The notes under the pieces were generated by a model that was not told the DNA's origin, ran no database searches, and saw only the letters and a list, made by a program, of their open reading frames with translations. A program made the translations under genes and the position numbers. A stretch of DNA of 25,037 nucleotides, taken from a virus. Within the stretch, counting starts at the first letter, position 1. The number at the start of each line of letters is the position of its first letter. Shown here one piece after another: positions 102 to 25,037 of the stretch. The stretch is from the UHGV virus genome UHGV-0332389; one strand, 5' to 3'.

Positions 102-656
102 TTATTTATCCCCTGCAGGAAACCTCTTATACAAAGTTGACACACCAACATCATAGATAATCGCCACCTTCTGGCGAGGAATGCCTGATGCAATTAATCG
201 CCCGGCCTGCGCCCATTGTTCTAGTGTAAGTTTGGGACGACGTCCCCCAATTCGTCCCTGTGCGCGAGCAGCTTCCAGTCCAGCTTTTGTTCGTTCAACA
301 ATCAGTTCTCGTTCCATTTCAGCCAGGGCACCCATCACATGAAAGAAAAAACGCCCCATCGGTGTGCTGGTATCAATAGCATCCGTCAGGCTGCGAAAAT
401 TAACGCCACGTTCGCGCAACTCCTCAACCAGAATGACCAGATGCCGCATACTACGCCCCAGCCGATCCAGCTTCCAGACAACCAGAGTATCACCTGCCGA
501 TAATGTCCTGAGCAGTTTTTTCAGTCCCGGCCTTTCGGACTTTGTACCGCTTATCTTGTCTTCAAAAATCAGCTCGCATCCTGCACAGTTCAGCGCATTA
601 CGTTGTAGATCTGTGTTCTGGTCATTTGTTGACACACGTACATAACCAATAAGCAT
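102..656 (-). CDS. pin: Serine recombinase, DNA invertase of the Pin/Gin/Hin/Cin family
   Basis: Translation MLIGYVRVSTNDQNTDLQ...GDTLVVWKLDRLGRS...VGVSTLYKRFPAGDK has the N-terminal catalytic serine motif and C-terminal HTH typical of Pin/Gin invertases. The ORF track starts 12 codons upstream, but the internal ATG at 656 has a GGGAGA Shine-Dalgarno about 7 nt upstream. Confidence 0.9.
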   Translation of the reverse strand: MLIGYVRVSTNDQNTDLQRNALNCAGCELIFEDKISGTKSERPGLKKLLRTLSAGDTLVVWKLDRLGRSMRHLVILVEELRERGVNFRSLTDAIDTSTPMGRFFFHVMGALAEMERELIVERTKAGLEAARAQGRIGGRRPKLTLEQWAQAGRLIASGIPRQKVAIIYDVGVSTLYKRFPAGDK

Positions 657-710
657 GGTAGATCTCCCTGACAAAAGCAGGAATGATGCCATTTGCTCGT
701 TATTTCTGCA

Positions 711-736
711 TTTTCATAAACGTTGGTTTGGGAGAA
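711..736. other. Left crossover site for the invertase (hix/gix-like 26 bp site)
   Basis: TTTTCATAAACGTTGGTTTGGGAGAA; its reverse complement shares the first 14 bp, including the central AA dinucleotide, with the site at 2650-2675. The sites are in inverted orientation. Confidence 0.6.
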
Positions 737-1189
737 GGCTCTGCATTACCTGTTGGTGTCCCTGTTCCGTGGCCTTCAGCCACTCCGCCAACAGGCTGGC
801 TGAAATGCAATGGTGCAGCTTTTTCTGCTGAAGAATACCCGGAACTGGCAAAGGCTTATCCGACAAATAAATTGCCTGATTTACGTGGTGAGTTTATTCG
901 CGGCTGGGATGACGGGCGCGGGGTTGACTCTGGACGAGGTTTGTTGACGGCGCAGGCGGAAACAAAGATAACTAACCACCACGGCAATGGCGGTAACGCT
1001 GATGATATTTCGGCTGGTGTCTCCGGTTCACCTCCCAAAAACTTTGTCAGAAACGCGGATTCGGCAGTTAATGCTGGTTCTGGTTTTACCGCTTTTGGCT
1101 CTGGAAATTTGACAATGAATGGTGTTACTTCTTATTTCGGTGTCCGTCCACGCAACATCGCATTTAACTACATTGTGAGGGCTGCATAA
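737..1189 (+). CDS. Silent alternative tail-fibre C-terminal cassette (variable part, promoterless in this orientation)
   Basis: ORF 683-1189 encodes ...GSALPVGVPVPWPSATPPTGWLKCNGAAFSAEEYPELAKAYP...LPDLRGEFIRGWDDGRGVD, resembling the receptor-binding C-terminus of Mu S-type fibres. The first about 18 codons of the tracked ORF span the crossover site and lie outside the segment, so the tracked start is not real. After inversion this would fuse to the constant N-terminus at 2676-2952. Confidence 0.6.
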   Translation, partial: GSALPVGVPVPWPSATPPTGWLKCNGAAFSAEEYPELAKAYPTNKLPDLRGEFIRGWDDGRGVDSGRGLLTAQAETKITNHHGNGGNADDISAGVSGSPPKNFVRNADSAVNAGSGFTAFGSGNLTMNGVTSYFGVRPRNIAFNYIVRAA

Positions 1190-1791
1190 TGGATAGCGCT
1201 GTATTAAATAGCGAGTTTATTGCCACGAAGGCGGGGGATATTACTGTCTATAATTATGATGGTGAAACACGGGAATATATTTCCATATCAACTGAATATC
1301 TTGCCGTTGGTGTCGGCATTCCGGCATGTTCCTGTTTAGATGCTCCAGGCGCATACAAAGCTGGTTATGCAATCTGCCGTTCTGCAGATTTTAAGTCATG
1401 GGAATATGTGCCAGACCATCGCGGTGAAATCGTCTTTAGCACCGAAACAGGAGAATCAAAAGAAATCACAGCTCCGGGTGATTACCCTAATAATACAACC
1501 ACTATCGCCCCATTAACGCCATACGATAAATGGGATGGTGAGAAATGGGTGACGGATACTGAGGCACAGCATAGCGCCGCAGTAGACGCGGCAGAAGCAC
1601 AGCGCCAGTCACTGATTGATGCTGCAATGGCTTCCATTAGTCTGATTCAGCTGAAATTACAGGCCGGACGGAAACTGACGCAGGCAGAAACAACCCGGCT
1701 TAACGCTGTGCTGGATTACATTGACGCGGTGACGGCAACAGATACCAGCACCGCGCCGAATGTCATCTGGCCTGAACTGCCGGAGGCGTAG
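1189..1791 (+). CDS. Tail fibre assembly protein (alternative copy, Tfa/U'-like), paired with the silent fibre cassette
   Basis: 200 aa ORF immediately following the alternative fibre cassette; C-terminus ...NVIWPELPEA parallels the ...DIEWPTPPAVQAR ending of the convergent Tfa copy. Confidence 0.75.
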   Translation: MDSAVLNSEFIATKAGDITVYNYDGETREYISISTEYLAVGVGIPACSCLDAPGAYKAGYAICRSADFKSWEYVPDHRGEIVFSTETGESKEITAPGDYPNNTTTIAPLTPYDKWDGEKWVTDTEAQHSAAVDAAEAQRQSLIDAAMASISLIQLKLQAGRKLTQAETTRLNAVLDYIDAVTATDTSTAPNVIWPELPEA

Positions 1792-2206
1792 GCCATTCAA
1801 TATCTGGAGCACTGGAGGGATCAACCAGTTCCAGTGCGTCCAGATAATCCAGCCATAAATTATATTGCTCCAGCTCGTTACCTTTCAGACGACCAATAGC
1901 AGCTTTGCCAGGCCACTGATGGGTGTTGATGTAGGTATTGGCTTCTGAAACCAAAGATATTTTTTTCATTTCAGCCATCAACACCTCATCCTCTTTTGAA
2001 GGCGGTGGGGAATTAATCCATATTGGCCGTCCTGAACTGTCAGCGCCAATTTCTTTCCCTTCTGGATGCAGCCCAAGAAATTGCTCATATGTTTCTCGGG
2101 TAATTTCAATAACATCATCTGGAAGCGTTCCCGCATCCTCATATTCTGGAAACAATTCTTGTAGATAAAAACTTTTACTTCCGGGTGAAAAGAATACTGA
2201 GTTCAT
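1763..2206 (-). CDS. Tail fibre assembly protein (expressed copy, Tfa/U-like)
   Basis: 147 aa ORF directly downstream of the tail fibre gene on the same strand; its 3' end overlaps the convergent copy by 29 bp. Confidence 0.75.
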   Translation of the reverse strand: MNSVFFSPGSKSFYLQELFPEYEDAGTLPDDVIEITRETYEQFLGLHPEGKEIGADSSGRPIWINSPPPSKEDEVLMAEMKKISLVSEANTYINTHQWPGKAAIGRLKGNELEQYNLWLDYLDALELVDPSSAPDIEWPTPPAVQAR

Positions 2207-2208
2207 TC

Positions 2209-2952
2209 TTACCGTCCAATGATTAACGCTGAGACGCTGGTATCTGAAGGAAAGGCTGCATTCAGTGGTTTGTCGACTTTGAATACAATCGTATTATTCC
2301 CCCGGACAGCGGCAAAAGAACAAACCGCCGTCGCGTATGAACCTGTAATATTACTGGATACACCGCCATAAGCTGTTGTTGATACCAGAGGGATAACGCC
2401 CAGCACCTTATTAGGAAATACAAAGGGCAATGTGGCTGTGGCAATATAAGACTTATTAGAACCTGTAATGGCATAAGCATTATCAGTCATTCCATTCATC
2501 GCCACTGGACCGCTTATACTTACAGTAACCATCTGAGTGATTAGCCCGTCAGGTTGACGAATCACAAAATTTCCATTGCCACCAGTAACCGTCCAGAAAG
2601 ACATATCAGGGATTTGGTTTTCCCCGTTGCCCACATTCCGTTTTGCCGCTTCTCCCAAACCAAGGTTTTCGAGAGCCGTTTTCACCGTGCCATCCGATTT
2701 GATATCGCCAAACGGATTCTTGCGGCTTAACAGCAGCGCGCGAAGCGCGGTAAGTAGCTGGTCGTGCCGCCCCTTCTCCAGGCTGGCACCGGACGCCTCC
2801 ACAACGCTGCAAAGCTCCTCCTGCAACATGTCAAAGTAGTCATCATCCAGATCGGTGGCAGGCGTGCCGGTCTGGGGGTTACCACGGGTAAAACCGTTCT
2901 TACCCGCGCCGAACTTATCCTTCTGCGCGGTTTTCGTGTCTATACGATGCAT
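2209..2952 (-). CDS. Tail fibre protein (Mu S-like): constant N-terminal part plus the currently selected variable C-terminal part
   Basis: 247 aa, [48 protein letters not shown]...; GGAG Shine-Dalgarno 7 nt upstream; the crossover site at 2650-2675 falls at codons for ENLGLGE. Confidence 0.8.
2650..2675. other. Right crossover site for the invertase (hix/gix-like), inside the tail fibre gene
   Basis: TTCTCCCAAACCAAGGTTTTCGAGAG; matches the remembered hixL sequence TTCTTGAAAACCAAGGTTTTTGATAA at most positions, including the central AA. Confidence 0.65.
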
Positions 2953-5549: not shown

Positions 5550-6628
5550 CAGAACGGGTCCTCCTGTACTCTGGCTTTTTTCTTTTTCCGCGCGCCGGGG
5601 TCTTCAGGTTCAGGCAGATAAGCATCAGGCGGGCCGACACGGATTTCCGTCAGGGTGCCGTTCTGGTCCTGAGTAAACGTGACTTCCGAAACAAGCAGTT
5701 CGGTATTGTCGAAACCACAGACCGGATCAAAGACAATCACCCGCTGGTTGGGCTGCCACAGCGTACCGTTACCCTGTCGCCAGCCCTGCACCACATAGGT
5801 GGTTTCATCCGTCCGCGCCGCCCGTTGCCGGGCTTCAAAGTCAGCACGCGCAATACAGCCTGCCCCCGTAGCCTGCCCTGTCTGCCTGATATACATCGGA
5901 CGGTAACGGGCAATAAATGCGTCCTCTGTGCGGGCCCGCAGCGCGGTGGTGGTGGCCTCACCGAAATCATCGTCGTTTCCGGCACGCTGCCCCGCCACCT
6001 GGTAAACAGAAAACCGCTCCCGGATACTCTTCTCCGTATCGCAGGAAAGGATGTTTTCCCCGAGTACCAGCGCGGTATGTGCCCGCGTTGAGCCAATACC
6101 GCCAATCACCAGCCTGCCGTGCGGGTCGTCGTAAGCCAGTGCCTGCTGCTGACCGAGTATTTTGTTGATTACCTCAATCACCGTTTCACCGTGATCAGGC
6201 TGAACATCAGGAATAACACCCGACGGCGCACCGCTGTTCACCACCTCAATGCCGAAAGGCGCAGCAAGCGCCTGCGCAATCTGTACCAGCGATCGTCCGT
6301 TAAACTGTGTCGGTTCGGCTGCACAGTCAATCAGGTCAGCGGTCAGACTGCGTCCGGCAATACCGGTGCTGACCGAACGGGCATCGTAACGAACGGGAGT
6401 CGCCTCCACCCAGCCGGTGATCACCAGCTCATCACCAATCAGCACTTCCACTTTTGAACCGTTTTTAATGCGCGGCTGAAGCGTGGTGATACCCTCATCT
6501 CCCGGCCACTGGCGAGTGATCTCCACACTGAAATCCCGCGCCAGCCGTTCAATACCGGCACCGATGCGCACCGATGTCCAGCCATTCCACTCCCGGCCAT
6601 TTACCCGTAGCGTGACATTGTCGTTCAT
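5549..6628 (-). CDS. Baseplate hub / tail protein, Mu gp44 (P)-like, P2 gpD-like
   Basis: 359 aa ORF with Lys-rich C-terminus (ARKKKKARVQEDPF); position downstream of the DNA circulation protein. Confidence 0.75.
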   Translation of the reverse strand: MNDNVTLRVNGREWNGWTSVRIGAGIERLARDFSVEITRQWPGDEGITTLQPRIKNGSKVEVLIGDELVITGWVEATPVRYDARSVSTGIAGRSLTADLIDCAAEPTQFNGRSLVQIAQALAAPFGIEVVNSGAPSGVIPDVQPDHGETVIEVINKILGQQQALAYDDPHGRLVIGGIGSTRAHTALVLGENILSCDTEKSIRERFSVYQVAGQRAGNDDDFGEATTTALRARTEDAFIARYRPMYIRQTGQATGAGCIARADFEARQRAARTDETTYVVQGWRQGNGTLWQPNQRVIVFDPVCGFDNTELLVSEVTFTQDQNGTLTEIRVGPPDAYLPEPEDPGARKKKKARVQEDPF

Positions 6629-7953
6629 TGCACTGGCACCTTCAGAGGGATCACCGGCACAAAGCCGGGATGCGTAATGGCATTACGCCGGATAATGTCC
6701 GCGTCACGCGCCGCGTTATCAAACCAGGTAGCCGCCAGCACCAGCGCGGGTAAAACCTCATCCGGTGTGCGCTGAATGATCCGTGCAGACTGTTCAAGGC
6801 GCGTGTTGATATCCGCATTCAGATCTGCTTTCACCCGGCGCAGCGCCAGAAACAGCGCATCACTGGTTGTACGGGACAACTCCTTATCAATTGCCGTATT
6901 CAGTGTGTCGCGAATGTCAGTCAGTTCTTCCCACGTCGGCAGGTCAACCGTGTTTTTCACCGCCGGTACATTGTTTAGTGCCGGATGCGTGACGGAAGGC
7001 CAGCCAGTGCTCTGCGCGGGTGTTGTTGCCTGCCCCACTGCGGAATTCTGCATCACCGCGGAAATTGTTGGCGCAGGCAATCGGGTGACGGCATACGCCG
7101 CTTCGCTGATTGCGGTCGTACGAAGGGTGCTGGCAACCACGTTACGCTGCTGCGTCGCCGTGGCGGTGGTTTTACTGTCCGTTTTCCAGACGCCGCGCGG
7201 TTGCAGATCGCTGCCGAGGCTGACACCGGAAAGCGTTTTGATCATGGTGACCAGGTCGCTGGCGTTACCATAAAGGCGTTTCCCGGTACGCCACATTTTC
7301 TGCACCTGCTCAACGAAATTTTTGCCTGACGATGGCGGCGGCAGAAGTACCGAGATATCACCCTGCAACAGCCTGGCGGCATCCGATACGGCAGAATCCA
7401 CCACTTTCATCGCATCAGAAACATACCCAAGCATTGTGCTGGCATTACCGATAACGTCGTTCTGCACAAAATCCGCCACGCCATCGATACTGAAACCGCT
7501 GAAGCTGTCACTGATGCAGTCATCCAGTGCAGAACAGGATGACATCAGCGTCTGCGCCGTCGCCACGCCTGATGTGGGGTAAGAGAGATCTCCCGCTTCG
7601 ACAAACTTCAGGTCAAAGCGGACAATACGCCCTTCACTCTTCGATGTGCTGACCCGAACTTCCCCGTCAACACAGACTTTCAACTCACCGTATGTCGGGT
7701 GGACAAGCGTGCCGGGACCGGGTTTATTCAGCGCGTCAATCAGGCGATCGCGCTGGTCAAAGCAGTCATCTCCCACCACATAAGCCGTGATGGACGGGCG
7801 GAAAGTGACTTTTCCCAGATCTTCGGTATAGGGTTTGTCGCGGTTCGGATATTCGTGTGTTTCCACACGACGGCCGGTTCCCGCACTTTCTTCTTCAACC
7901 TTAAACGGCACACCTCGAAATGACGCATCCTGAAGCCTGTCTTTCCACGTCAT
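6625..7953 (-). CDS. DNA circulation protein (Mu N/gp43-like)
   Basis: Contains MTWKDRLQDASFRGVPFKVEEES, typical of the Mu N family N-terminus. The tracked ORF begins at 8001 inside the AT-rich insertion; start is assigned to the internal ATG at 7953, though the ribosome-binding site is weak in either case. Confidence 0.8.
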   Translation of the reverse strand: MTWKDRLQDASFRGVPFKVEEESAGTGRRVETHEYPNRDKPYTEDLGKVTFRPSITAYVVGDDCFDQRDRLIDALNKPGPGTLVHPTYGELKVCVDGEVRVSTSKSEGRIVRFDLKFVEAGDLSYPTSGVATAQTLMSSCSALDDCISDSFSGFSIDGVADFVQNDVIGNASTMLGYVSDAMKVVDSAVSDAARLLQGDISVLLPPPSSGKNFVEQVQKMWRTGKRLYGNASDLVTMIKTLSGVSLGSDLQPRGVWKTDSKTTATATQQRNVVASTLRTTAISEAAYAVTRLPAPTISAVMQNSAVGQATTPAQSTGWPSVTHPALNNVPAVKNTVDLPTWEELTDIRDTLNTAIDKELSRTTSDALFLALRRVKADLNADINTRLEQSARIIQRTPDEVLPALVLAATWFDNAARDADIIRRNAITHPGFVPVIPLKVPVQ

Positions 7954-8063
7954 ATAAGTCCCATATTTATTATCAGTAGTAATATTTACTGGTAATGCCA
8001 TAATTTGTAGTGGTAGCCATTACCATTTGTAACTATATAAATTATTAGCATTAAGGTGATAAC

Positions 8064-8510
8064 ATGAAGAAATTATTAAAATGGATTTTATATATTTTCA
8101 TCGGGTTGGTGATTATTGGATATTTTGCAGGCAATAACGATAAAGGCTCTAATTCTTCATACTCATCCGATACGGAAGCTGCGGCACCGCAAAAAGAAAT
8201 CTACAACACTACTGCTCGACAGCTGTTTAAAGAGTATGAAGAAAATGAAGTCGCTACCGATGAACAGTTAAAAGGTAAATTAATCGCCGTTAGAGGTATC
8301 GTACAATCCATTGATAAGGACTTTACTGACTCTATAATTATTAAATTCAGAACTGAAAATGAATTCATGCCAGCAAGAATGGAGATGCAAGACTCTGAAA
8401 AATCAACAGCTGCTGCTCTTAAAAAAGGAGAACAAGTAACTGTTATTTGCGAAAAAATGTCCAGAATTGTCGGCTCCCCATCAGGCCGAAATTGCGTGTT
8501 CGCACAGTAA
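8064..8510 (+). CDS. Moron: membrane-anchored OB-fold-like protein of unknown function (resembles tRNA_anti-like / OB-fold putative lipoprotein family)
   Basis: 148 aa ORF on the opposite strand to all flanking tail genes, in a visibly AT-rich block; AAGGTGA Shine-Dalgarno 5 nt upstream of the ATG; N-terminal hydrophobic anchor MKKLLKWILYIFIGLVIIGYFAG followed by a soluble domain. Confidence 0.7.
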   Translation: MKKLLKWILYIFIGLVIIGYFAGNNDKGSNSSYSSDTEAAAPQKEIYNTTARQLFKEYEENEVATDEQLKGKLIAVRGIVQSIDKDFTDSIIIKFRTENEFMPARMEMQDSEKSTAAALKKGEQVTVICEKMSRIVGSPSGRNCVFAQ

Positions 8511-8542
8511 GTTCAGGGGGGGGCGGCCCTCCCTGTTCGTCT

Positions 8543-10375
8543 TTACCTAAATCTGGTGTACCCAACATCGTGATTAATATCAATGCCACTGGAACGTGTT
8601 TCCGTAACCCGCATACCTGGTGGCATATTCATAAATGAAACCTTGATCTCGCCATCAACTTTTGGCGCGATAGCTTTGTTAATCATGAAGGGATTCGAGC
8701 CTGTGGCATCGGAGGCGTTGTTTGCCTGAGCCGGATCCACCACCGGATAAGGAGTGTATCCCCGTGGCGGTATTCCCGTCCCATAAGCATCATAAGCACC
8801 CGCGCCCAACTGCGCCGAGTTAATGGCATCGACCGTGTCACCGGAACTGTCGGTAAACCATTCAATAATCGGCTTCAGCTTATCCCACATATCCTGAAAC
8901 CACTTAACAACCGGTCCCCAGTTATTGATCACCATCCCCAGCGGCGACCAGGCAAAAACCTTCTTCAGAAGTTCCCAACCTGCCTCAAAATAAGGACCAA
9001 TGGTTTCCCAGAGCTTCTTGAAATAAGGTCCGACAACATCCCAGTTAGTGATAATTAATCCCGCAGCCAGAGCAATCGCCGTCGCAATCATGCCAATCGG
9101 CGTCATCGACATAATCCTGCTGACAATACTGATGGCACTGCCCACGCCCATCAATCCCAGTTTCAGAATCGCAAGACCGGCAGCAAGCCCGACGACGCCG
9201 CGAATAACCCGGGGATTTTCATCCGCAAACTTCGTGAATTTCTCCCCCAACTCCCCCAGCCATTGTGTGATATTTTTAGCGTCACCAGAAAATGCGCCGC
9301 CAATAGCCGCAAGGCCGTTAGTTGCGGTCCCTGTCATTGCCTCCCACAGGTTGGACAGCGTACCAAGCTGTGCCTGAACACGTTTATTCAGGCTGGCCTG
9401 TTTATTCATCTTCTGCTGGATCTGATCGTAGCCATCCTTTCCTTTATCGATTAGTGCATTGACCACCTGAAGGGTTTCGGCATCATCACCAAATATTGCC
9501 TTAAGTACACCTGTTCGCTTAACGTCGGTCAGTTTTCGCAGCTTTGCCAGTTGCCTGAACATGTTATCAAGACCGCCAAAACTTCCTTTGCCGTCAGTAA
9601 AATCGAGCTGTACCCCGAGTTTCTGGCGGGCCATAACTTTATTAACGTCCCTGATTTTCTTAACGCTTAATCCGGACTGGATAACTTTTCGCAGGGCATT
9701 ACCTGCCGACTCCCCGTTCATCCCCATCTGATCCATCATGACGCTGATGGGGGCAAGGCTCTGTGCAGCCTGAAGACCATCCTTGTTCACCATCTTCAGA
9801 ACAGAACTGGTTTTAGTGAAGAAGGACAACATGTTGGTATCGTCAACGCCCAGATAAAACGCCTTCTGGATAGTGTCGAACAGCCCCATCATGTCTTCTG
9901 ACGCCGTTCCGGTAGCATCCTGCATCTTTGCAGCAAACTCAGCAGCCGCTTCCGGTGTTTTTTTCAGTTGTACCGCAAGATAAGCTGTCGCTTTACCCAC
10001 ACCACCCAGAATGTTTTCTGCCGGGATCCCCTGACGCACCAGCATCTGCATCATGTTCTGGAAATCAGCCGTTGTACCAGGTAGCTGGTTACCCAGGCCA
10101 ATAGCCAGTTTATTGATGTCCTGAAAGCTCTTTCCAACCTCGCCGTTCGCATCCATCATGGCGACTTTCAGCCCGGTGGCGGCGTTTTCCTGATCGGCAT
10201 AAGATTTCAGGGAAAGCGTCAGACCCGCTGCCAGTCCGCCACCAAGCGCCAGCCCACCCTGTGACGCTTCTTCCGCCTGGCGTTTAAATCCCCGGATTTT
10301 CTTTTGCATTTTCGACAGCGCGGGAGAAAGCCTGTCGACACCGGTGATCAACGCCTTAAGCTCAAATTCAGCCAT
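8543..10375 (-). CDS. Tail tape measure protein
   Basis: 610 aa ORF, helical and Gly/Ala-rich with hydrophobic central stretches, directly downstream of the tail assembly chaperone and its frameshift extension. Confidence 0.85.
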   Translation of the reverse strand: MAEFELKALITGVDRLSPALSKMQKKIRGFKRQAEEASQGGLALGGGLAAGLTLSLKSYADQENAATGLKVAMMDANGEVGKSFQDINKLAIGLGNQLPGTTADFQNMMQMLVRQGIPAENILGGVGKATAYLAVQLKKTPEAAAEFAAKMQDATGTASEDMMGLFDTIQKAFYLGVDDTNMLSFFTKTSSVLKMVNKDGLQAAQSLAPISVMMDQMGMNGESAGNALRKVIQSGLSVKKIRDVNKVMARQKLGVQLDFTDGKGSFGGLDNMFRQLAKLRKLTDVKRTGVLKAIFGDDAETLQVVNALIDKGKDGYDQIQQKMNKQASLNKRVQAQLGTLSNLWEAMTGTATNGLAAIGGAFSGDAKNITQWLGELGEKFTKFADENPRVIRGVVGLAAGLAILKLGLMGVGSAISIVSRIMSMTPIGMIATAIALAAGLIITNWDVVGPYFKKLWETIGPYFEAGWELLKKVFAWSPLGMVINNWGPVVKWFQDMWDKLKPIIEWFTDSSGDTVDAINSAQLGAGAYDAYGTGIPPRGYTPYPVVDPAQANNASDATGSNPFMINKAIAPKVDGEIKVSFMNMPPGMRVTETRSSGIDINHDVGYTRFR

Positions 10376-20870: not shown

Positions 20871-21068
20871 CTAATCGTCGAGTTGCAATACACCGTGCTC
20901 AAGTGACTCTGAGTAAGCGATCAGCCCTGTGTATTCAGGGATAATCTCGCCATCATCCGCTTCGAATTCCGGGATTGTACCAGTGGTGATGGTGTATTGG
21001 GGCTGACCATCTTCTTTCGCGAATGCTGCTAGGTCTTCAATCTGCTTAGCTGTAAGAACTACTGCCAT
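20871..21068 (-). CDS. Small strongly acidic hypothetical protein (65 aa)
   Basis: MAVVLTAKQIEDLAAFAKEDGQPQYTITTGTIPEFEADDGEIIPEYTGLIAYSESLEHGVLQLDD; start taken at the second ATG, with GAGGT 7 nt upstream. Confidence 0.4.
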   Translation of the reverse strand: MAVVLTAKQIEDLAAFAKEDGQPQYTITTGTIPEFEADDGEIIPEYTGLIAYSESLEHGVLQLDD

Positions 21069-21085
21069 GCTCATACCTCAGTTGT

Positions 21086-21109
21086 TAAAAAGCCCCGCTA
21101 TTGCGAGGC
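21086..21109 (-). terminator. Rho-independent terminator downstream of the 91 aa membrane protein gene
   Basis: Minus-strand GCCTCGC-AATA-GCGGGGC followed by TTTTTAAC. Confidence 0.5.
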
Positions 21110-21132
21110 TATGATTGACTAAAGTGATGCTG

Positions 21133-21408
21133 TCAGGTGTGGGTCCAAATGAATTTAACAATCCCAATAATGCTAGCCAGAACGCCAAAACCAAAAATAA
21201 ATTGACCACATACCCCTATGATTCCCGATGCAATGGCACCGGCATTTGTCTGAGCATTTTCGTTTATGCTCGCCCCCACTAGATACATAATCAAACCAAC
21301 TATGAGAGATGCGATAATCCAATGTTCCACTGCTAATACAATTACAATGCTCAAAATATCTGCTAAACCATCACTATGACCACTCACTGCATATCCTTGC
21401 TTTGACAT
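21133..21408 (-). CDS. Small two-TM Gly-rich membrane protein of unknown function (accessory, AT-rich)
   Basis: 91 aa with two hydrophobic helices and GxxxG-like motifs (AIASGIIGVCGQFIFGFGVLASIIG); located after Rz; weak ribosome-binding site. Confidence 0.45.
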   Translation of the reverse strand: MSKQGYAVSGHSDGLADILSIVIVLAVEHWIIASLIVGLIMYLVGASINENAQTNAGAIASGIIGVCGQFIFGFGVLASIIGIVKFIWTHT

Positions 21409-21474
21409 TTGAAAAATTCATCACTGGATTATAATTGTTTACACCCTTCATAGTCGTTCGAATATGATAAAAAA

Positions 21475-22011
21475 TCAATTGTGGGGGATAGCGTTATTTG
21501 ACTCTCTCAACGAGTCGTAAATACGTTCACACGTCATCCCGGCGGTGTAGCGTTCGTCAGCGATTCCAGCATAACGTTTAGCTTCTGCTGCAATATCTCC
21601 GAGCATGTCGGCGAACATTCCGGCGTCAGCGTCGGTTGTTTTGCTTCGGACGGCAGCGGCAAGATCAGCGGTGTGCTTTGCGGCGTCCAGGCGTGCGGCA
21701 AGCTTTGTTGCTTCGGTACGCAACTGGCTAACAGTGGCAGACAGGCCAGCAGCAGTGGCAGCAGATTTAGCGGCTTGTGCTTGTGCATCTTTTACAGCCT
21801 CATCACGGGCAATTATGCGCCCTTGTTCAATCCAGCGTGCGGCAGTCTGCGCGTTCGCTTCCTGTGAAGATTCCATGCTATTGTGGTCAGCCCACTTCTT
21901 TTGCCAGCCCCGCTCACTCCAGATGTTCCCGGCAAGAAATGCACCAGCCAACATCAGCAAAACAATGATTGTTTTCCACCGCGCCTGAACAGAAGCAAAG
22001 ACCGCTGTCAT
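21475..22011 (-). CDS. Rz-like i-spanin
   Basis: 178 aa, N-terminal TM helix ([20 protein letters not shown]) then Ala/Gln-rich coiled-coil periplasmic domain; start overlaps the endolysin stop. Confidence 0.75.
21534..21788 (-). CDS. Rz1-like o-spanin (lipoprotein), fully embedded in Rz in another frame
   Basis: 84 aa, [23 protein letters not shown]... with lipobox LASC followed by a Pro-rich mature region. Confidence 0.65.
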
Positions 22012-22906: not shown

Positions 22907-23279
22907 CTGAACCTCCCCGGCGCGTTATGAGCGCCACCAGCGAGACGATATCCTGATTATTCAGGAACGTCAGGATTTTAACGGCTAAAGCAGAGACGAT
23001 TACGGCACCAATAGCATCCAGAGGTTTATCACTGTATCCGGTCAAGTTTGCCAGCTTGGAGCCAACCAACCCAGAGCAAAGGATCCCAGCAATATATGAC
23101 ACGATAAAATATGCCAGTCGACGCGATGCACTCAGATCTGCTGCTGTTGCTATATAGAATACAGCCCCTGCAAATGCGCCAAATACAACGCCGTAATCAG
23201 TTCCGGTCAGCAGTCCATAAATACTAGCGCCCGTTAGGGCTCCACCAGCTAACCCTGTGCCGGAAATCGGATCGGACAT
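22893..23279 (-). CDS. Putative holin
   Basis: 128 aa from MSDPISGTGLAGGALTGASIYGLL... with hydrophobic helices and a charged C-terminus; AGAGGTGG Shine-Dalgarno upstream. The tracked ORF starts 22 codons earlier with no ribosome-binding site. Confidence 0.6.
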   Translation of the reverse strand: MSDPISGTGLAGGALTGASIYGLLTGTDYGVVFGAFAGAVFYIATAADLSASRRLAYFIVSYIAGILCSGLVGSKLANLTGYSDKPLDAIGAVIVSALAVKILTFLNNQDIVSLVALITRRGGSGGAK

Positions 23280-23387
23280 TAGCCACCTCTTATTGCAGTG
23301 AGTCCTCTCAGAAATAGAAATGAGAGGAATAAAAAAGGCCACCATTTGGCAGCCATAGAATTGATGTAATTATAACTAATTCATTAA

Positions 23388-24194
23388 CTATTTCTTAATG
23401 ATGCTATTTAACATTTCTAATGCAAAAAGCAACATGGAGCTAATAAAATATAATATAACCGCACTGGCAATCGCTCCAATTATAGCCTGGACACTCCAGT
23501 GAAAGTAATTTTTACCATTAATAACAAACTTAACACTAGGAAACAAAAAGTCGATAAGCTTAATTATTAATGGAATAGCAAAGCTCCATAAGTTCGAAAA
23601 CAAAATAAAGATACAAATAAATGATAAAGCAAATGCACCATCGATTGATAGTTTTGGCGCCAGTTTTGAGGCTGTCCATAAGCTAAGCAAAAAGCCAACT
23701 GTCACACCTGAAATCTGGATACTTAACATAGTCCAAGCTGTTCTAAAAAATCTAAATTTATTTTTGCACTTGTTAAGTAAATCCTGAATCGTAATCCATA
23801 ACGAGTCAACCCACTCATTATCTTCCGATGCTACAATCATTGTGCTGCTATTTGAATTCCTCTCATCAATTCGTAGCTCCATCCAAGATCCATTCATCCT
23901 GTTAGACTGTCGACTTTGATAAGTTTCAATAGTAAAAATTATTTGATCAATCCTAGTGGCCTGTCTAAAGTATTTCACAAGCTCACCGATAGAATCAACT
24001 TTATATCCCTTACCATCGAACAAAATAAAAAAAACACATTGAGCACAAACTTCCCTACTTTCCTTTTGAGCTTGCTCATTCATTTTAACGCAGCGTTCGA
24101 CAATTGCCGTGCTTAAGCTAATCAAGCTATCTTCATTTATAGAAACACCTGAAATATTCTTGCTTCTGTAAAAATATGACACTTTCGATTCCAC
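23388..24194 (-). CDS. Accessory membrane protein of unknown function: N-terminal soluble domain of about 160 aa plus three C-terminal TM helices (candidate exclusion or abortive-infection effector)
   Basis: 268 aa ORF in a strongly AT-rich block; C-terminal hydrophobic segments WTMLSIQISGVTVGFLLSLW, FALSFICIFILFSNLWSFAIPLIIKLIDFLF, AIIGAIASAVILYFISSMLLFAL. The first in-frame start is GTG with no clear Shine-Dalgarno, so the start is uncertain. Confidence 0.5.
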   Translation of the reverse strand: MESKVSYFYRSKNISGVSINEDSLISLSTAIVERCVKMNEQAQKESREVCAQCVFFILFDGKGYKVDSIGELVKYFRQATRIDQIIFTIETYQSRQSNRMNGSWMELRIDERNSNSSTMIVASEDNEWVDSLWITIQDLLNKCKNKFRFFRTAWTMLSIQISGVTVGFLLSLWTASKLAPKLSIDGAFALSFICIFILFSNLWSFAIPLIIKLIDFLFPSVKFVINGKNYFHWSVQAIIGAIASAVILYFISSMLLFALEMLNSIIKK

Positions 24195-24359
24195 TCCGCA
24201 CCAGTCTCGATTTAGCGCAGGTTAACATAACCACTTCATTGGTAGAAGAAAAGAACTCTTCTTGTCAGAAAGCTACTGTGATATCCCTAAACCTGCAGAT
24301 GATACAGAACAAAATTTAAGCATCAATTGTAGGCGATTTTAAATTCACTTTACAGTTTA

Positions 24360-24377
24360 GGCTGCCAATTGGCAGCC
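24360..24377. promoter_or_regulatory. Perfect 18 bp palindrome between the two accessory genes (candidate operator)
   Basis: GGCTGCCAATTGGCAGCC, 15 bp downstream of the 89 aa gene stop; no U-tract on either strand. Confidence 0.4.
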
Positions 24378-24391
24378 GATTGAAGCAGAAA

Positions 24392-24661
24392 TCAATGAGT
24401 GCTCATCGATGAATTTTTTTCAGCGCCAATCTCACTCAAAAAAGCAAAACCTTTTGACGTTATCTCATTAGCAATCAATCCACCTTCGGCAGATTTGCTT
24501 CGTATAACATCGATAAAACCTATATCAGCAAGATCTGAAATAGCAAAATTAACCTCTTTTGCTGAGAGATGAGGTAATGATGCAGCCTGAATTCTAGAAT
24601 CCTTTGGCTGCAATTCATTCACTCGACGTAGTATTTCAAGATGGATAGAGGTCAGTTTCAT
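24392..24661 (-). CDS. Small helical protein, possible winged-helix DNA-binding regulator (first gene of accessory cassette)
   Basis: 89 aa ORF with AGGAG Shine-Dalgarno 7 nt upstream and an extended -10 promoter upstream; AT-rich. Confidence 0.6.
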   Translation of the reverse strand: MKLTSIHLEILRRVNELQPKDSRIQAASLPHLSAKEVNFAISDLADIGFIDVIRSKSAEGGLIANEITSKGFAFLSEIGAEKNSSMSTH

Positions 24662-24698
24662 AATGTTCTCCTGTTTTTAATGTTGTTTTACAGAAAAC

Positions 24699-24735
24699 AT
24701 TATAACACATTGATTTTGATGTAGATTGAATAGAA
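24699..24735 (-). promoter_or_regulatory. Sigma70-like promoter with extended -10 (TGTTATAAT) driving the accessory cassette
   Basis: Minus-strand TATAAT at 24699-24704 preceded by TGT; weak -35 region; located about 35 nt upstream of the 89 aa gene start. Confidence 0.4.
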
Positions 24736-24743
24736 AAAAACCA

Positions 24744-24766
24744 TAAAAAAACCTCGCAATAGCGAG
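24744..24766 (-). terminator. Rho-independent terminator (possible tR'-like late terminator) upstream of the accessory cassette
   Basis: Minus-strand CCTCGC-TATT-GCGAGG followed by TTTTTTT; about 110 nt downstream of the stop of the partial upstream gene. Confidence 0.55.
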
Positions 24767-24875
24767 GTCGTAAAAATCGTTCAACGATAGATACACAAGC
24801 CCCATCGTTGAGAAAATCTTATCCATATTTTTTGAGAAACACAAGCATTATGTCGTTATCTTCGGCGAAAATCGC

Positions 24876-25037
24876 TTATCTCGTCACCCTTCTCAATTGT
24901 GCTTCAGCGTAAGCTTCCTCCTGCCAGCACTTTGTAACCAGTTTATCAATGACATCTGCATATCCTTTGTACCACTGATAATCCGTCAGGTCTGGTACCA
25001 GCTTCTGGACATGAAGCCGCGCCAGTGTGGTTGGTAA
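24876..25037 (-). CDS. 3' end of a gene running into the window from the right (partial; identity unknown, possibly a late regulator)
   Basis: Open minus-strand frame from the window edge to TAA at 24876-24878; C-terminal 53 aa ...DYQWYKGYADVIDKLVTKCWQEEAYAEAQLRRVTR. Confidence 0.35.
   Translation of the reverse strand, partial: LPTTLARLHVQKLVPDLTDYQWYKGYADVIDKLVTKCWQEEAYAEAQLRRVTR

Follow-up and report, generated by a model that had tools for sequence, protein, structure and literature searches.

The window analyzed here, that is, the whole stretch of 25,037 nucleotides of the UHGV virus genome UHGV-0332389, corresponds to the late region of a SfV/e14-like prophage, with its tail genes on the minus strand. 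The order of the genes and the coordinates of the features discussed below are collected in Table 1. Between the tape measure gene and the baseplate hub gene we found an accessory cassette of 589 bp with a GC content of 37.2%, against 50-60% in the flanks and a mean of 52.9% (sd 5.9) for the 589-bp windows elsewhere in the stretch. All the long ORFs flanking it are on the minus strand. The AT-rich insert of about 590 bp amid minus-strand tail genes, which an earlier note made from the letters had pointed out, is therefore real, and so is the plus-strand ORF of 148 aa with its Shine-Dalgarno just before the ATG, the sole long ORF of the cassette. The cassette is not the part of the stretch with the lowest GC, since values down to 32% appear in 23142-25022.

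Table 1. Features of the window and of the cassette between the tape measure and hub genes (a dot is given where no strand applies).
Feature	Position	Strand	Evidence or remark
Pin-type invertase and invertible tail-fibre segment	left end of the window, first in left-to-right order		
Mu-like baseplate genes	right of the invertase segment, left of the hub gene		
Mu gp43-like baseplate hub / 'DNA circulation' gene	6625..7953	-	PF07157 at residues 7-93; phrog_184
AT-rich accessory cassette (moron)	7954..8542	.	between tape measure and hub genes; GC, presence/absence
8-bp perfect inverted repeat TGGTAATG / CATTACCA	7990..8025	.	brackets the putative -10 and transcription start
Putative extended -10, TGcCATAAT	7996..8004	+	conserved in register across four prophage alleles
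Shine-Dalgarno AAGGTGA	8053..8059	+	read from the sequence; 4 nt before the ATG at 8064
CDS, PF12869 OB-fold protein, Sie2009-like	8064..8510	+	148 aa; identical DNA annotated WP_000734912.1 'OB-fold protein'
Predicted N-terminal signal-anchor helix, residues 3-22	8070..8129	+	AlphaFold2 helix, hydropathy, charge count
Ser/Asn-rich flexible linker, residues 23-45	8130..8198	+	pLDDT below 50 for residues 24-36
OB-fold domain, residues 46-146, predicted periplasmic	8199..8501	+	Cys129 and Cys144 invariant
Predicted hairpin terminator	8514..8545	+	stem-loop 8514-8535, tail TTCGTCTTTA
Tail tape measure gene	8543..10375	-	PF10145 and tape-measure PHROGs; convergent with the cassette
Sheath and tube genes, HK97-like head module, terminase, HNH genes	right of the tape measure gene		
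Holin/endolysin/Rz lysis cassette	last in left-to-right order		

Taken as the longest ORF of the minus strand, the hub gene reaches position 8001, within the insert, and this had been read as a sign that its 5' end was reshaped by the insertion. Our analysis indicates otherwise. PGAP puts the start at 7953 in E. coli DNA that is 100% identical, phage SKA5 has it at the equivalent position, and the match to the DNA_circ_N profile starts at residue 7 in the 442-aa form of the protein. By these comparisons 7953 is the true start and the extension to 8001 is an artefact of ORF calling, so that the idea of a hub 5' end remodelled by the insert was rejected. The replacement was limited to the DNA ahead of the start codon, including the terminator that is seen at empty sites.

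We compared this junction with those of related phages by megablast of positions 7600-8900. In SfII, SfI, SfV and vB_EcoM-689R6 both flanks were matched and about 526 bp were absent; in SfIV the match covered the hub flank only, with an annotated gap of 24 bp at that place. The empty junctions of SfII, SfV, SfI, SfIV and three of the four E. coli prophages sampled (O157 TB21-1, IHE3034 and DA33137) measure 18-60 bp, and the one of SfII, 60 bp long, has a canonical terminator in the direction of the late strand. Other cargo is seen at the junction in phage SKA5 and in E. coli USMARC-49610, namely a same-strand ORF of 170-176 aa that is unrelated to the cassette and belongs to phrog_8976, of unknown function. 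In SfV-like phages, the tape measure/hub junction is a hot spot for cargo and exists in at least three states.

The frequency of the cassette was surveyed over 5,426 complete E. coli genomes, with the 400 bp of the hub gene next to the insert as probe. The probe gave 1,224 places, distributed over 1,091 genomes, and the cassette 81 places in 79 genomes, which amounts to about 6.6% of the hub places and to about 1.5% of the complete genomes. Around 93% of the related tail modules are without it and none of the isolated SfV-group phages examined carry it. The comparison of this junction across related prophages, proposed in the earlier note as a check, shows in consequence that the gene is not a uniform core gene of these phages. 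The cassette is full length in 54 of the E. coli carriers, and the copy in the window is intact and identical to these. Of the 79 carriers, 16 share a deletion of 143 bp, of the E. coli 042 type, by which the putative -10, the Shine-Dalgarno, the start codon and the TM helix are lost. IS1 cuts one copy, and five carriers have, at the same junction, an allele about 75% identical at the DNA level. The deletions and the copy cut by IS1 indicate that selection on the cassette has not been uniformly strong. At this junction a Buttiauxella prophage encodes a protein with 73% identity, and the original terminator is retained beside the gene.

Three properties that define morons in the Juhala/Hendrix sense (PMC3594210) are found here: extra DNA with respect to collinear relatives, deviant GC and a predicted terminator of its own. 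To these are added the opposite strand and, as a candidate for a further property of morons, a promoter of their own active in the repressed prophage, the putative extended -10 described below. The cassette is a moron in the classical sense, as had been proposed from its appearance. An opposite-strand moron among tail genes is also known from a P2-like prophage, that of neaT (PMC3573123), which serves here as precedent only.

The putative extended -10 has the pattern TGnNATAAA/T in the alleles of the window, E. coli 15.03CC, Buttiauxella and the P0013 contig, within upstream DNA that is otherwise poorly alignable. There was no good -35 near the element at 7996-8004, and a scan for the canonical sigma-70 consensus upstream of the ORF made no call, giving only an internal site at 8311-8338. 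A promoter at the extended -10 of the cassette is probable on the grounds of this conservation. The 8-bp inverted repeat around it could represent an operator or have arisen by chance. At the other end, RNA folding gave the hairpin (8514-8535) -19.5 kcal/mol on the plus strand, with the T-rich tail following, and -13.3 kcal/mol on the minus (late) strand, with no U-tract after it. Owing to this asymmetry in energy and in U-tract, the hairpin should end the cassette transcript and yet let late transcription pass. A hairpin is found directly 3' of the stop codon in every homologous copy.

Between alleles, pN values were 0.10-0.27 against pS values of 0.72-0.89 (saturated), indicating a real coding sequence under purifying selection. 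The gene has a GC content of 37-40% in most of the hosts examined and of 48% in an Erwinia copy, over surroundings of 49-57%.

The encoded protein matches Pfam PF12869 (tRNA_anti-like) at residues 2-130 with an E-value of 2.9e-19 (69.5 bits, cut-off 23.5). AlphaFold2, run with an alignment of 43 sequences, gave a model with pLDDT 87, in which the OB barrel at residues 46-146 reached 95-98. The signal-anchor and the tRNA_anti-like OB-fold that had been recognized by eye are thus both recovered, the former as a helix at residues 3-22. Ahead of this TM helix there is a charge of +3 (K2, K3 and K6). The length and the sequence of the linker differ between homologues. The two cysteines of the domain are invariant in the 43-sequence alignment, and exactly two core Cys are found in 121 of 131 homologues. 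Most of these 131 have an N-terminal anchor like that of the window protein, and there are 8 with a lipobox, 12 with a Zn-ribbon (predicted cytoplasmic) followed by a TM helix, and some with a signal peptide and an extra domain. The lipobox and Zn-ribbon plus TM variants, the Cys pair, the positive-inside rule and the near-neutral charge of the domain allow the strong inference that the OB domain is extracytoplasmic, hence periplasmic in this host, where it is probably stabilized by a disulfide.

The fold is akin to those of nucleic-acid-binding OB domains such as the anticodon domains of aaRS, RPA and Stn1. However, a domain predicted to be periplasmic and with 15 positive and 16 negative residues, that is, near-neutral and not basic, argues against the nucleic-acid-binding role implied by the family name. 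The closest solved structure is PDB 3F1Z, and fold comparison was needed to make this link; single-sequence and profile searches of the PDB gave only chance matches. 3F1Z comes from structural genomics, is described as a 'putative nucleic acid-binding lipoprotein' of Klebsiella pneumoniae and is of PF12869 type, with 16-17% identity to the window protein, a lipid anchor in place of the TM helix and no known function. The 148-aa protein had no meaningful match in NCBIfam, and no family of PADLOC-DB v2, which includes Abi and PD-type single-gene systems, was matched at E up to 1. One BFVD match named 'host cell surface-exposed lipoprotein' hinted at fusions to Ltp-type domains. These were absent in 215 close relatives, in which Zn-ribbons were the only extra domains.

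PF12869 had been taken for a family without established function. In fact, both PF12869 and the PHROG of the window protein include a characterized exclusion protein, Sie2009, the prototype of the lactococcal ones. The protein of the window is matched over its full length by phrog_8545, labelled 'superinfection exclusion Sie-like' (1.5e-49). For Sie2009 (orf2 of Tuc2009) the match to phrog_8545 was at 1.7e-79 and that to PF12869, which passed the cut-off, at 3.5e-11. In Tuc2009, orf2 likewise bears the exclusion annotation, and it sits between the integrase and repressor genes, the position described for Sie2009. By hhalign, the profile of the window family aligned with Sie2009 along 132 columns that take in the TM helix and the OB domain, with a probability of 97.6% and an E-value of 3e-12. 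The homology is remote, about 27% over the 132 profile columns, and BLASTP aligns 47 residues only. We conclude from these profile matches that the window protein is a distant homologue of Sie2009. Sie2009 confers protection from skunaviruses and other phages, whose DNA injection it blocks by a mechanism that is unknown (PMC7693887; PMC10883804). Its membership makes the idea of a defence gene, which the earlier note had advanced in general terms, both stronger and more specific. PF12869 is nevertheless a broad family, and the function of Sie2009 may not be conserved throughout it.

Both proteins come from temperate phages and share the same predicted design, in which a basic N-terminus is followed by one TM anchor, a linker (Ser/Gly/Thr-rich in Sie2009) and an extracytoplasmic OB domain. 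They differ in that the window protein belongs to a Gram-negative host, has a domain predicted to be periplasmic and carries the conserved Cys pair, which is absent in Sie2009. The location is different as well: Sie2009 is in the lysogeny module, whereas the gene in the window is found among the tail genes and antisense to them, flanked by those for the tape measure and the hub. Its relatives occur downstream of the repressor, as at the Sie2009 locus. In the literature searched we found no experimental study of the Gram-negative branch of PF12869/Sie2009-like proteins.

A scan of IMG/VR gave 106 viral loci with OB relatives, and among the contexts examined two kinds of surroundings were apparent. 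In the Burkholderia phage Carl1, which is P2-like, the order is immunity repressor, membrane protein, OB gene and terminator, convergent with tail gene D. In proviruses of the Pantoea/Serratia type a CII-like gene and phrog_3554 (both minus) are followed by the CI repressor (plus) and directly after it by the OB gene (plus), and in the Pantoea-type loci a gene for a 267-aa membrane protein (plus) comes after the OB gene. Two further loci (L099 and L074) have CI(S24) directly 5' of a Zn-ribbon-OB gene. The other kind of location is within structural genes. In locus L071 the OB gene is antisense, with the tail chaperone on one side and the tape measure gene on the other, and in a Klebsiella phage a Zn-ribbon-TM-OB gene is antisense amid baseplate genes. 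Across unrelated prophage types and several genera the OB domain is 55-75% identical.

We considered whether the Pantoea and Pectobacterium copies were chromosomal genes not belonging to phages. This was rejected, because by tblastn an intact OB gene is found there directly downstream of a frameshifted or truncated CI repressor, the sign of a decayed prophage. The equivalent locus of the Erwinia copy gave no repressor match by tblastn, and only a weak integrase fragment was seen nearby. The copy on the P0013 contig adjoins livF and seems to retain the 3' end of a tape measure gene downstream. A position next to the repressor, together with retention in remnants, is classical for a prophage gene that benefits the host. 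In the Pantoea loci a WapI-like immunity gene is located a few genes from the OB gene.

There is prior evidence of similar arrangements in other phages. The exclusion protein gp15 of HK97 is an inner-membrane protein encoded by a moron adjacent to the tape measure gene (PMC3594210). Like the cassette, gp15 (YebO-like) is the product of an AT-rich moron with its own terminator beside the tape measure gene of an E. coli temperate phage. Unlike it, gp15 has 62 aa and no OB domain, and its gene is on the strand of the tail genes and at the other side of the tape measure gene. Homology between the two was rejected, the hhalign probability with HK97 gp15/YebO being 0.3%. Glo of the Vibrio phage K139 and SieA of P22 are functional analogues, envelope proteins expressed by the prophage that keep superinfecting phages out. 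Glo, a periplasmic protein, is encoded downstream of cI, and its homology to the window protein was likewise discarded (hhalign probability 0.1%). SieA is set apart by its description, with three TMs and no OB fold (PMC10883804). The combination of an N-terminal membrane anchor with an OB-like domain is shared with AbiP/PdpSau and with TcdC of C. difficile (PMC3575817, PMC10127798). AbiP and PdpSau act by abortive infection and have OB domains described as lying in the cytoplasm and binding nucleic acids (PMC10127798); going by this description they differ from the window domain, which is predicted to be periplasmic and is not basic.

On balance we lean, with moderate confidence, towards a superinfection-exclusion moron whose product blocks the entry of phage DNA. 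In its favour are the homology to Sie2009, the locations of the relatives, which are typical of exclusion genes, the purifying selection and the intact gene in decayed prophages. In this scheme the lysogen would transcribe the cassette from its own extended -10, with the transcript ending at its own hairpin. The product would be a type II bitopic protein of the inner membrane, with a short basic N-terminus in the cytoplasm and one TM helix, and the flexible Ser-rich tether of about 23 residues would hold the OB domain in the periplasm. Delivery of the incoming genome would then be blocked at the periplasm/inner-membrane step, leaving adsorption unaffected. The conservation of the domain across prophages and genera makes a conserved host envelope partner likelier than a variable phage protein, and suggests that the partner would be a conserved component of the host envelope used for DNA entry. 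The same conservation would be uncommon among proteins engaged in an arms race with those of phages, and to that extent counts against exclusion. A mechanism directed at the tape measure is kept open by the placement of the gene here, by locus L071 and by the precedent of HK97 gp15. Against exclusion there is also the remoteness of the homology to Sie2009, the lack of a PADLOC match and of a lysogeny-module position in the window, the absence of a sigma-70 call, the damaged copies in E. coli and the fact that AT-rich DNA is often silenced.

Some of these data would also suit a factor of lysogenic conversion or host fitness unrelated to exclusion, a periplasmic protector against bacteriocins, tailocins, T6SS effectors or envelope stress that would work like the membrane-anchored periplasmic immunity proteins. 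We consider this rather unlikely. A tethered domain, predicted to be periplasmic and conserved across genera, fits a conserved host or toxin target, and a gene that outlives its dead repressor in decayed prophages indicates that the host gains from it without the phage; the absence of a PADLOC match and the WapI-like neighbour in the Pantoea loci go in the same direction. However, retention in remnants is equally expected of an exclusion gene, the sole characterized relative acts in phage exclusion, the gene is repeatedly found immediately after CI repressors or beside tape measure genes, and Pfam and NCBIfam gave no homology to known immunity families. It is more improbable still that the cassette is silent or decaying cargo, intact in appearance but unexpressed (H-NS-silenced, for example) and without current function in this lineage. 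The AT-rich composition, the canonical promoter that was not called, the 16 of 79 E. coli carriers that have lost promoter, start and TM helix, and the copy disrupted by IS1 would be explained in this way. They have to be set against a window copy that is intact and identical to the 54 full-length ones, against strong purifying selection across alleles at saturated synonymous sites, and against the conservation of the Shine-Dalgarno, the extended -10 and the terminator.

The resemblance of the fold to aaRS anticodon domains, RPA and Stn1 raises another alternative, a membrane-anchored OB protein that binds nucleic acids in the cytoplasm, either as an Abi effector like AbiP and PdpSau, which are membrane-anchored OB-fold proteins of phage defence (PMC10127798), or as a regulator like TcdC, for which a profile match to PF12869 is described (PMC3575817). 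This is very improbable, since an extracytoplasmic domain is what the lipoprotein and Zn-ribbon+TM+OB variants, the Cys pair and the positive-inside rule all indicate; besides, the balance of 15 positive and 16 negative residues is not that of a basic domain and there is no Abi match in PADLOC. Finally, a role as virion component or in tail morphogenesis has in its favour only the position between the tape measure and hub genes, and is effectively refuted by the presence/absence data, with the gene missing in about 93% of the related tail modules and in all the isolated SfV-group phages examined. Its opposite strand, its foreign composition and its presence in the lysogeny modules of other phages point the same way.

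If superinfection exclusion by the cassette holds true, this would be the first characterized Gram-negative member of the Sie2009 family, with a fold, that of a tethered periplasmic OB domain, and a tractable E. coli system for studying the mechanism of exclusion. The cassette and its relatives in prophages of Enterobacterales, Burkholderia and Klebsiella may then affect host range and the outcomes of phage therapy. Without an exclusion function, it would be a routine moron at a hot spot of the tail module. A wider proposal, which we regard as doubtful, is that the tethered OB proteins of PF12869 make up an ancient class of exclusion proteins that crosses phyla and blocks entry through a host envelope component or through the tape-measure/DNA conduit, in which case the adjacency to the tape measure gene would reflect a functional tie to the injection step that the tape measure mediates. 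That class would span from the lactococcal Sie2009 to the prophages of Enterobacterales, Burkholderia and Klebsiella, and its members may bind on the external side of the cytoplasmic membrane.

The PGAP name 'OB-fold protein' and the PHROGs label of the family were already in place before this analysis. What it adds, to which the cargo hot spot at the tape measure/hub junction also belongs, is modest. The Sie2009 family reaches Gram-negative prophages, with a domain that would be periplasmic and probably disulfide-bonded. Besides, the OB gene recurs as an antisense insert beside tape measure genes.

The junction between the tape-measure and hub genes, where the cassette with the OB-fold (OB) gene is located in the window, was found to carry another gene in two relatives, phage SKA5 (L001 1945-2457) and an Escherichia coli USMARC-49610 prophage (L018 2962-3492). 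In both cases the cargo is a same-strand ORF of 170-176 aa belonging to phrog_8976, a family annotated as of unknown function, and a scan of the SKA5 copy against Pfam and PADLOC gave no match. Therefore, this junction is a hot spot for cargo genes, with at least three states. When the junction is empty, as in phage SfII (L002 1864-1902), the tape-measure and hub genes are separated by a canonical rho-independent terminator for the late strand, with a hairpin of -18.7 kcal/mol and a U-run behind it. A terminator at this position implies that late transcription is antiterminated. In the window this terminator is gone and all that remains is the asymmetric hairpin of the cassette (8514-8535), while a Buttiauxella prophage has kept both structures.

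We have also examined the region upstream of the OB gene. A perfect 8-bp inverted repeat (see table) flanks its putative -10 and transcription start, and may be either an operator or a chance match. Besides, a recurrent deletion of 143 bp, with the short repeats ACTGGTAA and GGCAATAA at its endpoints, was detected in E. coli 042 (L005 3000-3030) and 15 further genomes. Through this deletion the OB gene loses its putative promoter, SD, start codon and TM helix; even so, in the shortened allele PGAP annotates an "OB-fold protein" of 128 aa that starts at a codon other than ATG.

Elsewhere, OB genes were found next to genes for membrane proteins. In P2-like high-GC prophages, a gene coding for a multi-pass membrane protein of ca. 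240 aa lies upstream of the OB gene, between it and the repressor. The one paired with the OB gene in phage Carl1 (L028 4061-4807) belongs to phrog_6521; the -1 ORF of L093 is a further membrane-protein neighbor. Pantoea-type proviruses have a different membrane protein, of 267 aa, encoded downstream of the OB gene. These pairs may represent two-component arrangements.

Other features of the window
Feature	Position	Strand	Remarks
DNA invertase	102..692	-	phrog_125
Tail-fiber C-terminus and tail-fiber-assembly genes	683..1791; 1763..2952	+; -	opposite orientations; adjoin invertase
Inverted repeat, TGGTAATG / CATTACCA	7990-7997; 8018-8025		OB gene upstream region
AT-rich patch	21057-21628		downstream of Rz
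ORF, 91 aa	21133..21408	-	in this patch; phrog_28582 (annotated unknown function)
Second AT-rich island	23142-25022		larger than cassette; GC down to 32%; upstream of holin/endolysin/Rz cassette
ORF, 268 aa	23388..24194	-	in this island; phrog_30208 (annotated unknown function), 8.5e-162
ORF, 89 aa	24392..24661	-	in this island; weak DUF2513 match

Two other AT-rich stretches were apparent in the window. Lambdoid phages frequently carry cargo at the same position as the larger one, whose 268-aa ORF had no match in Pfam or PADLOC. At the other end, the region 102-2952 has the appearance of an e14/Mu-type invertible segment for host range. Finally, E. coli T16R (L004 1-6400) harbors a prophage in which the DNA of the insert region is 100% identical to the window, and an IS26-bounded resistance region with the genes rmtB1, blaTEM-1 and blaCTX-M-55 truncates the tail-fiber end of this prophage.
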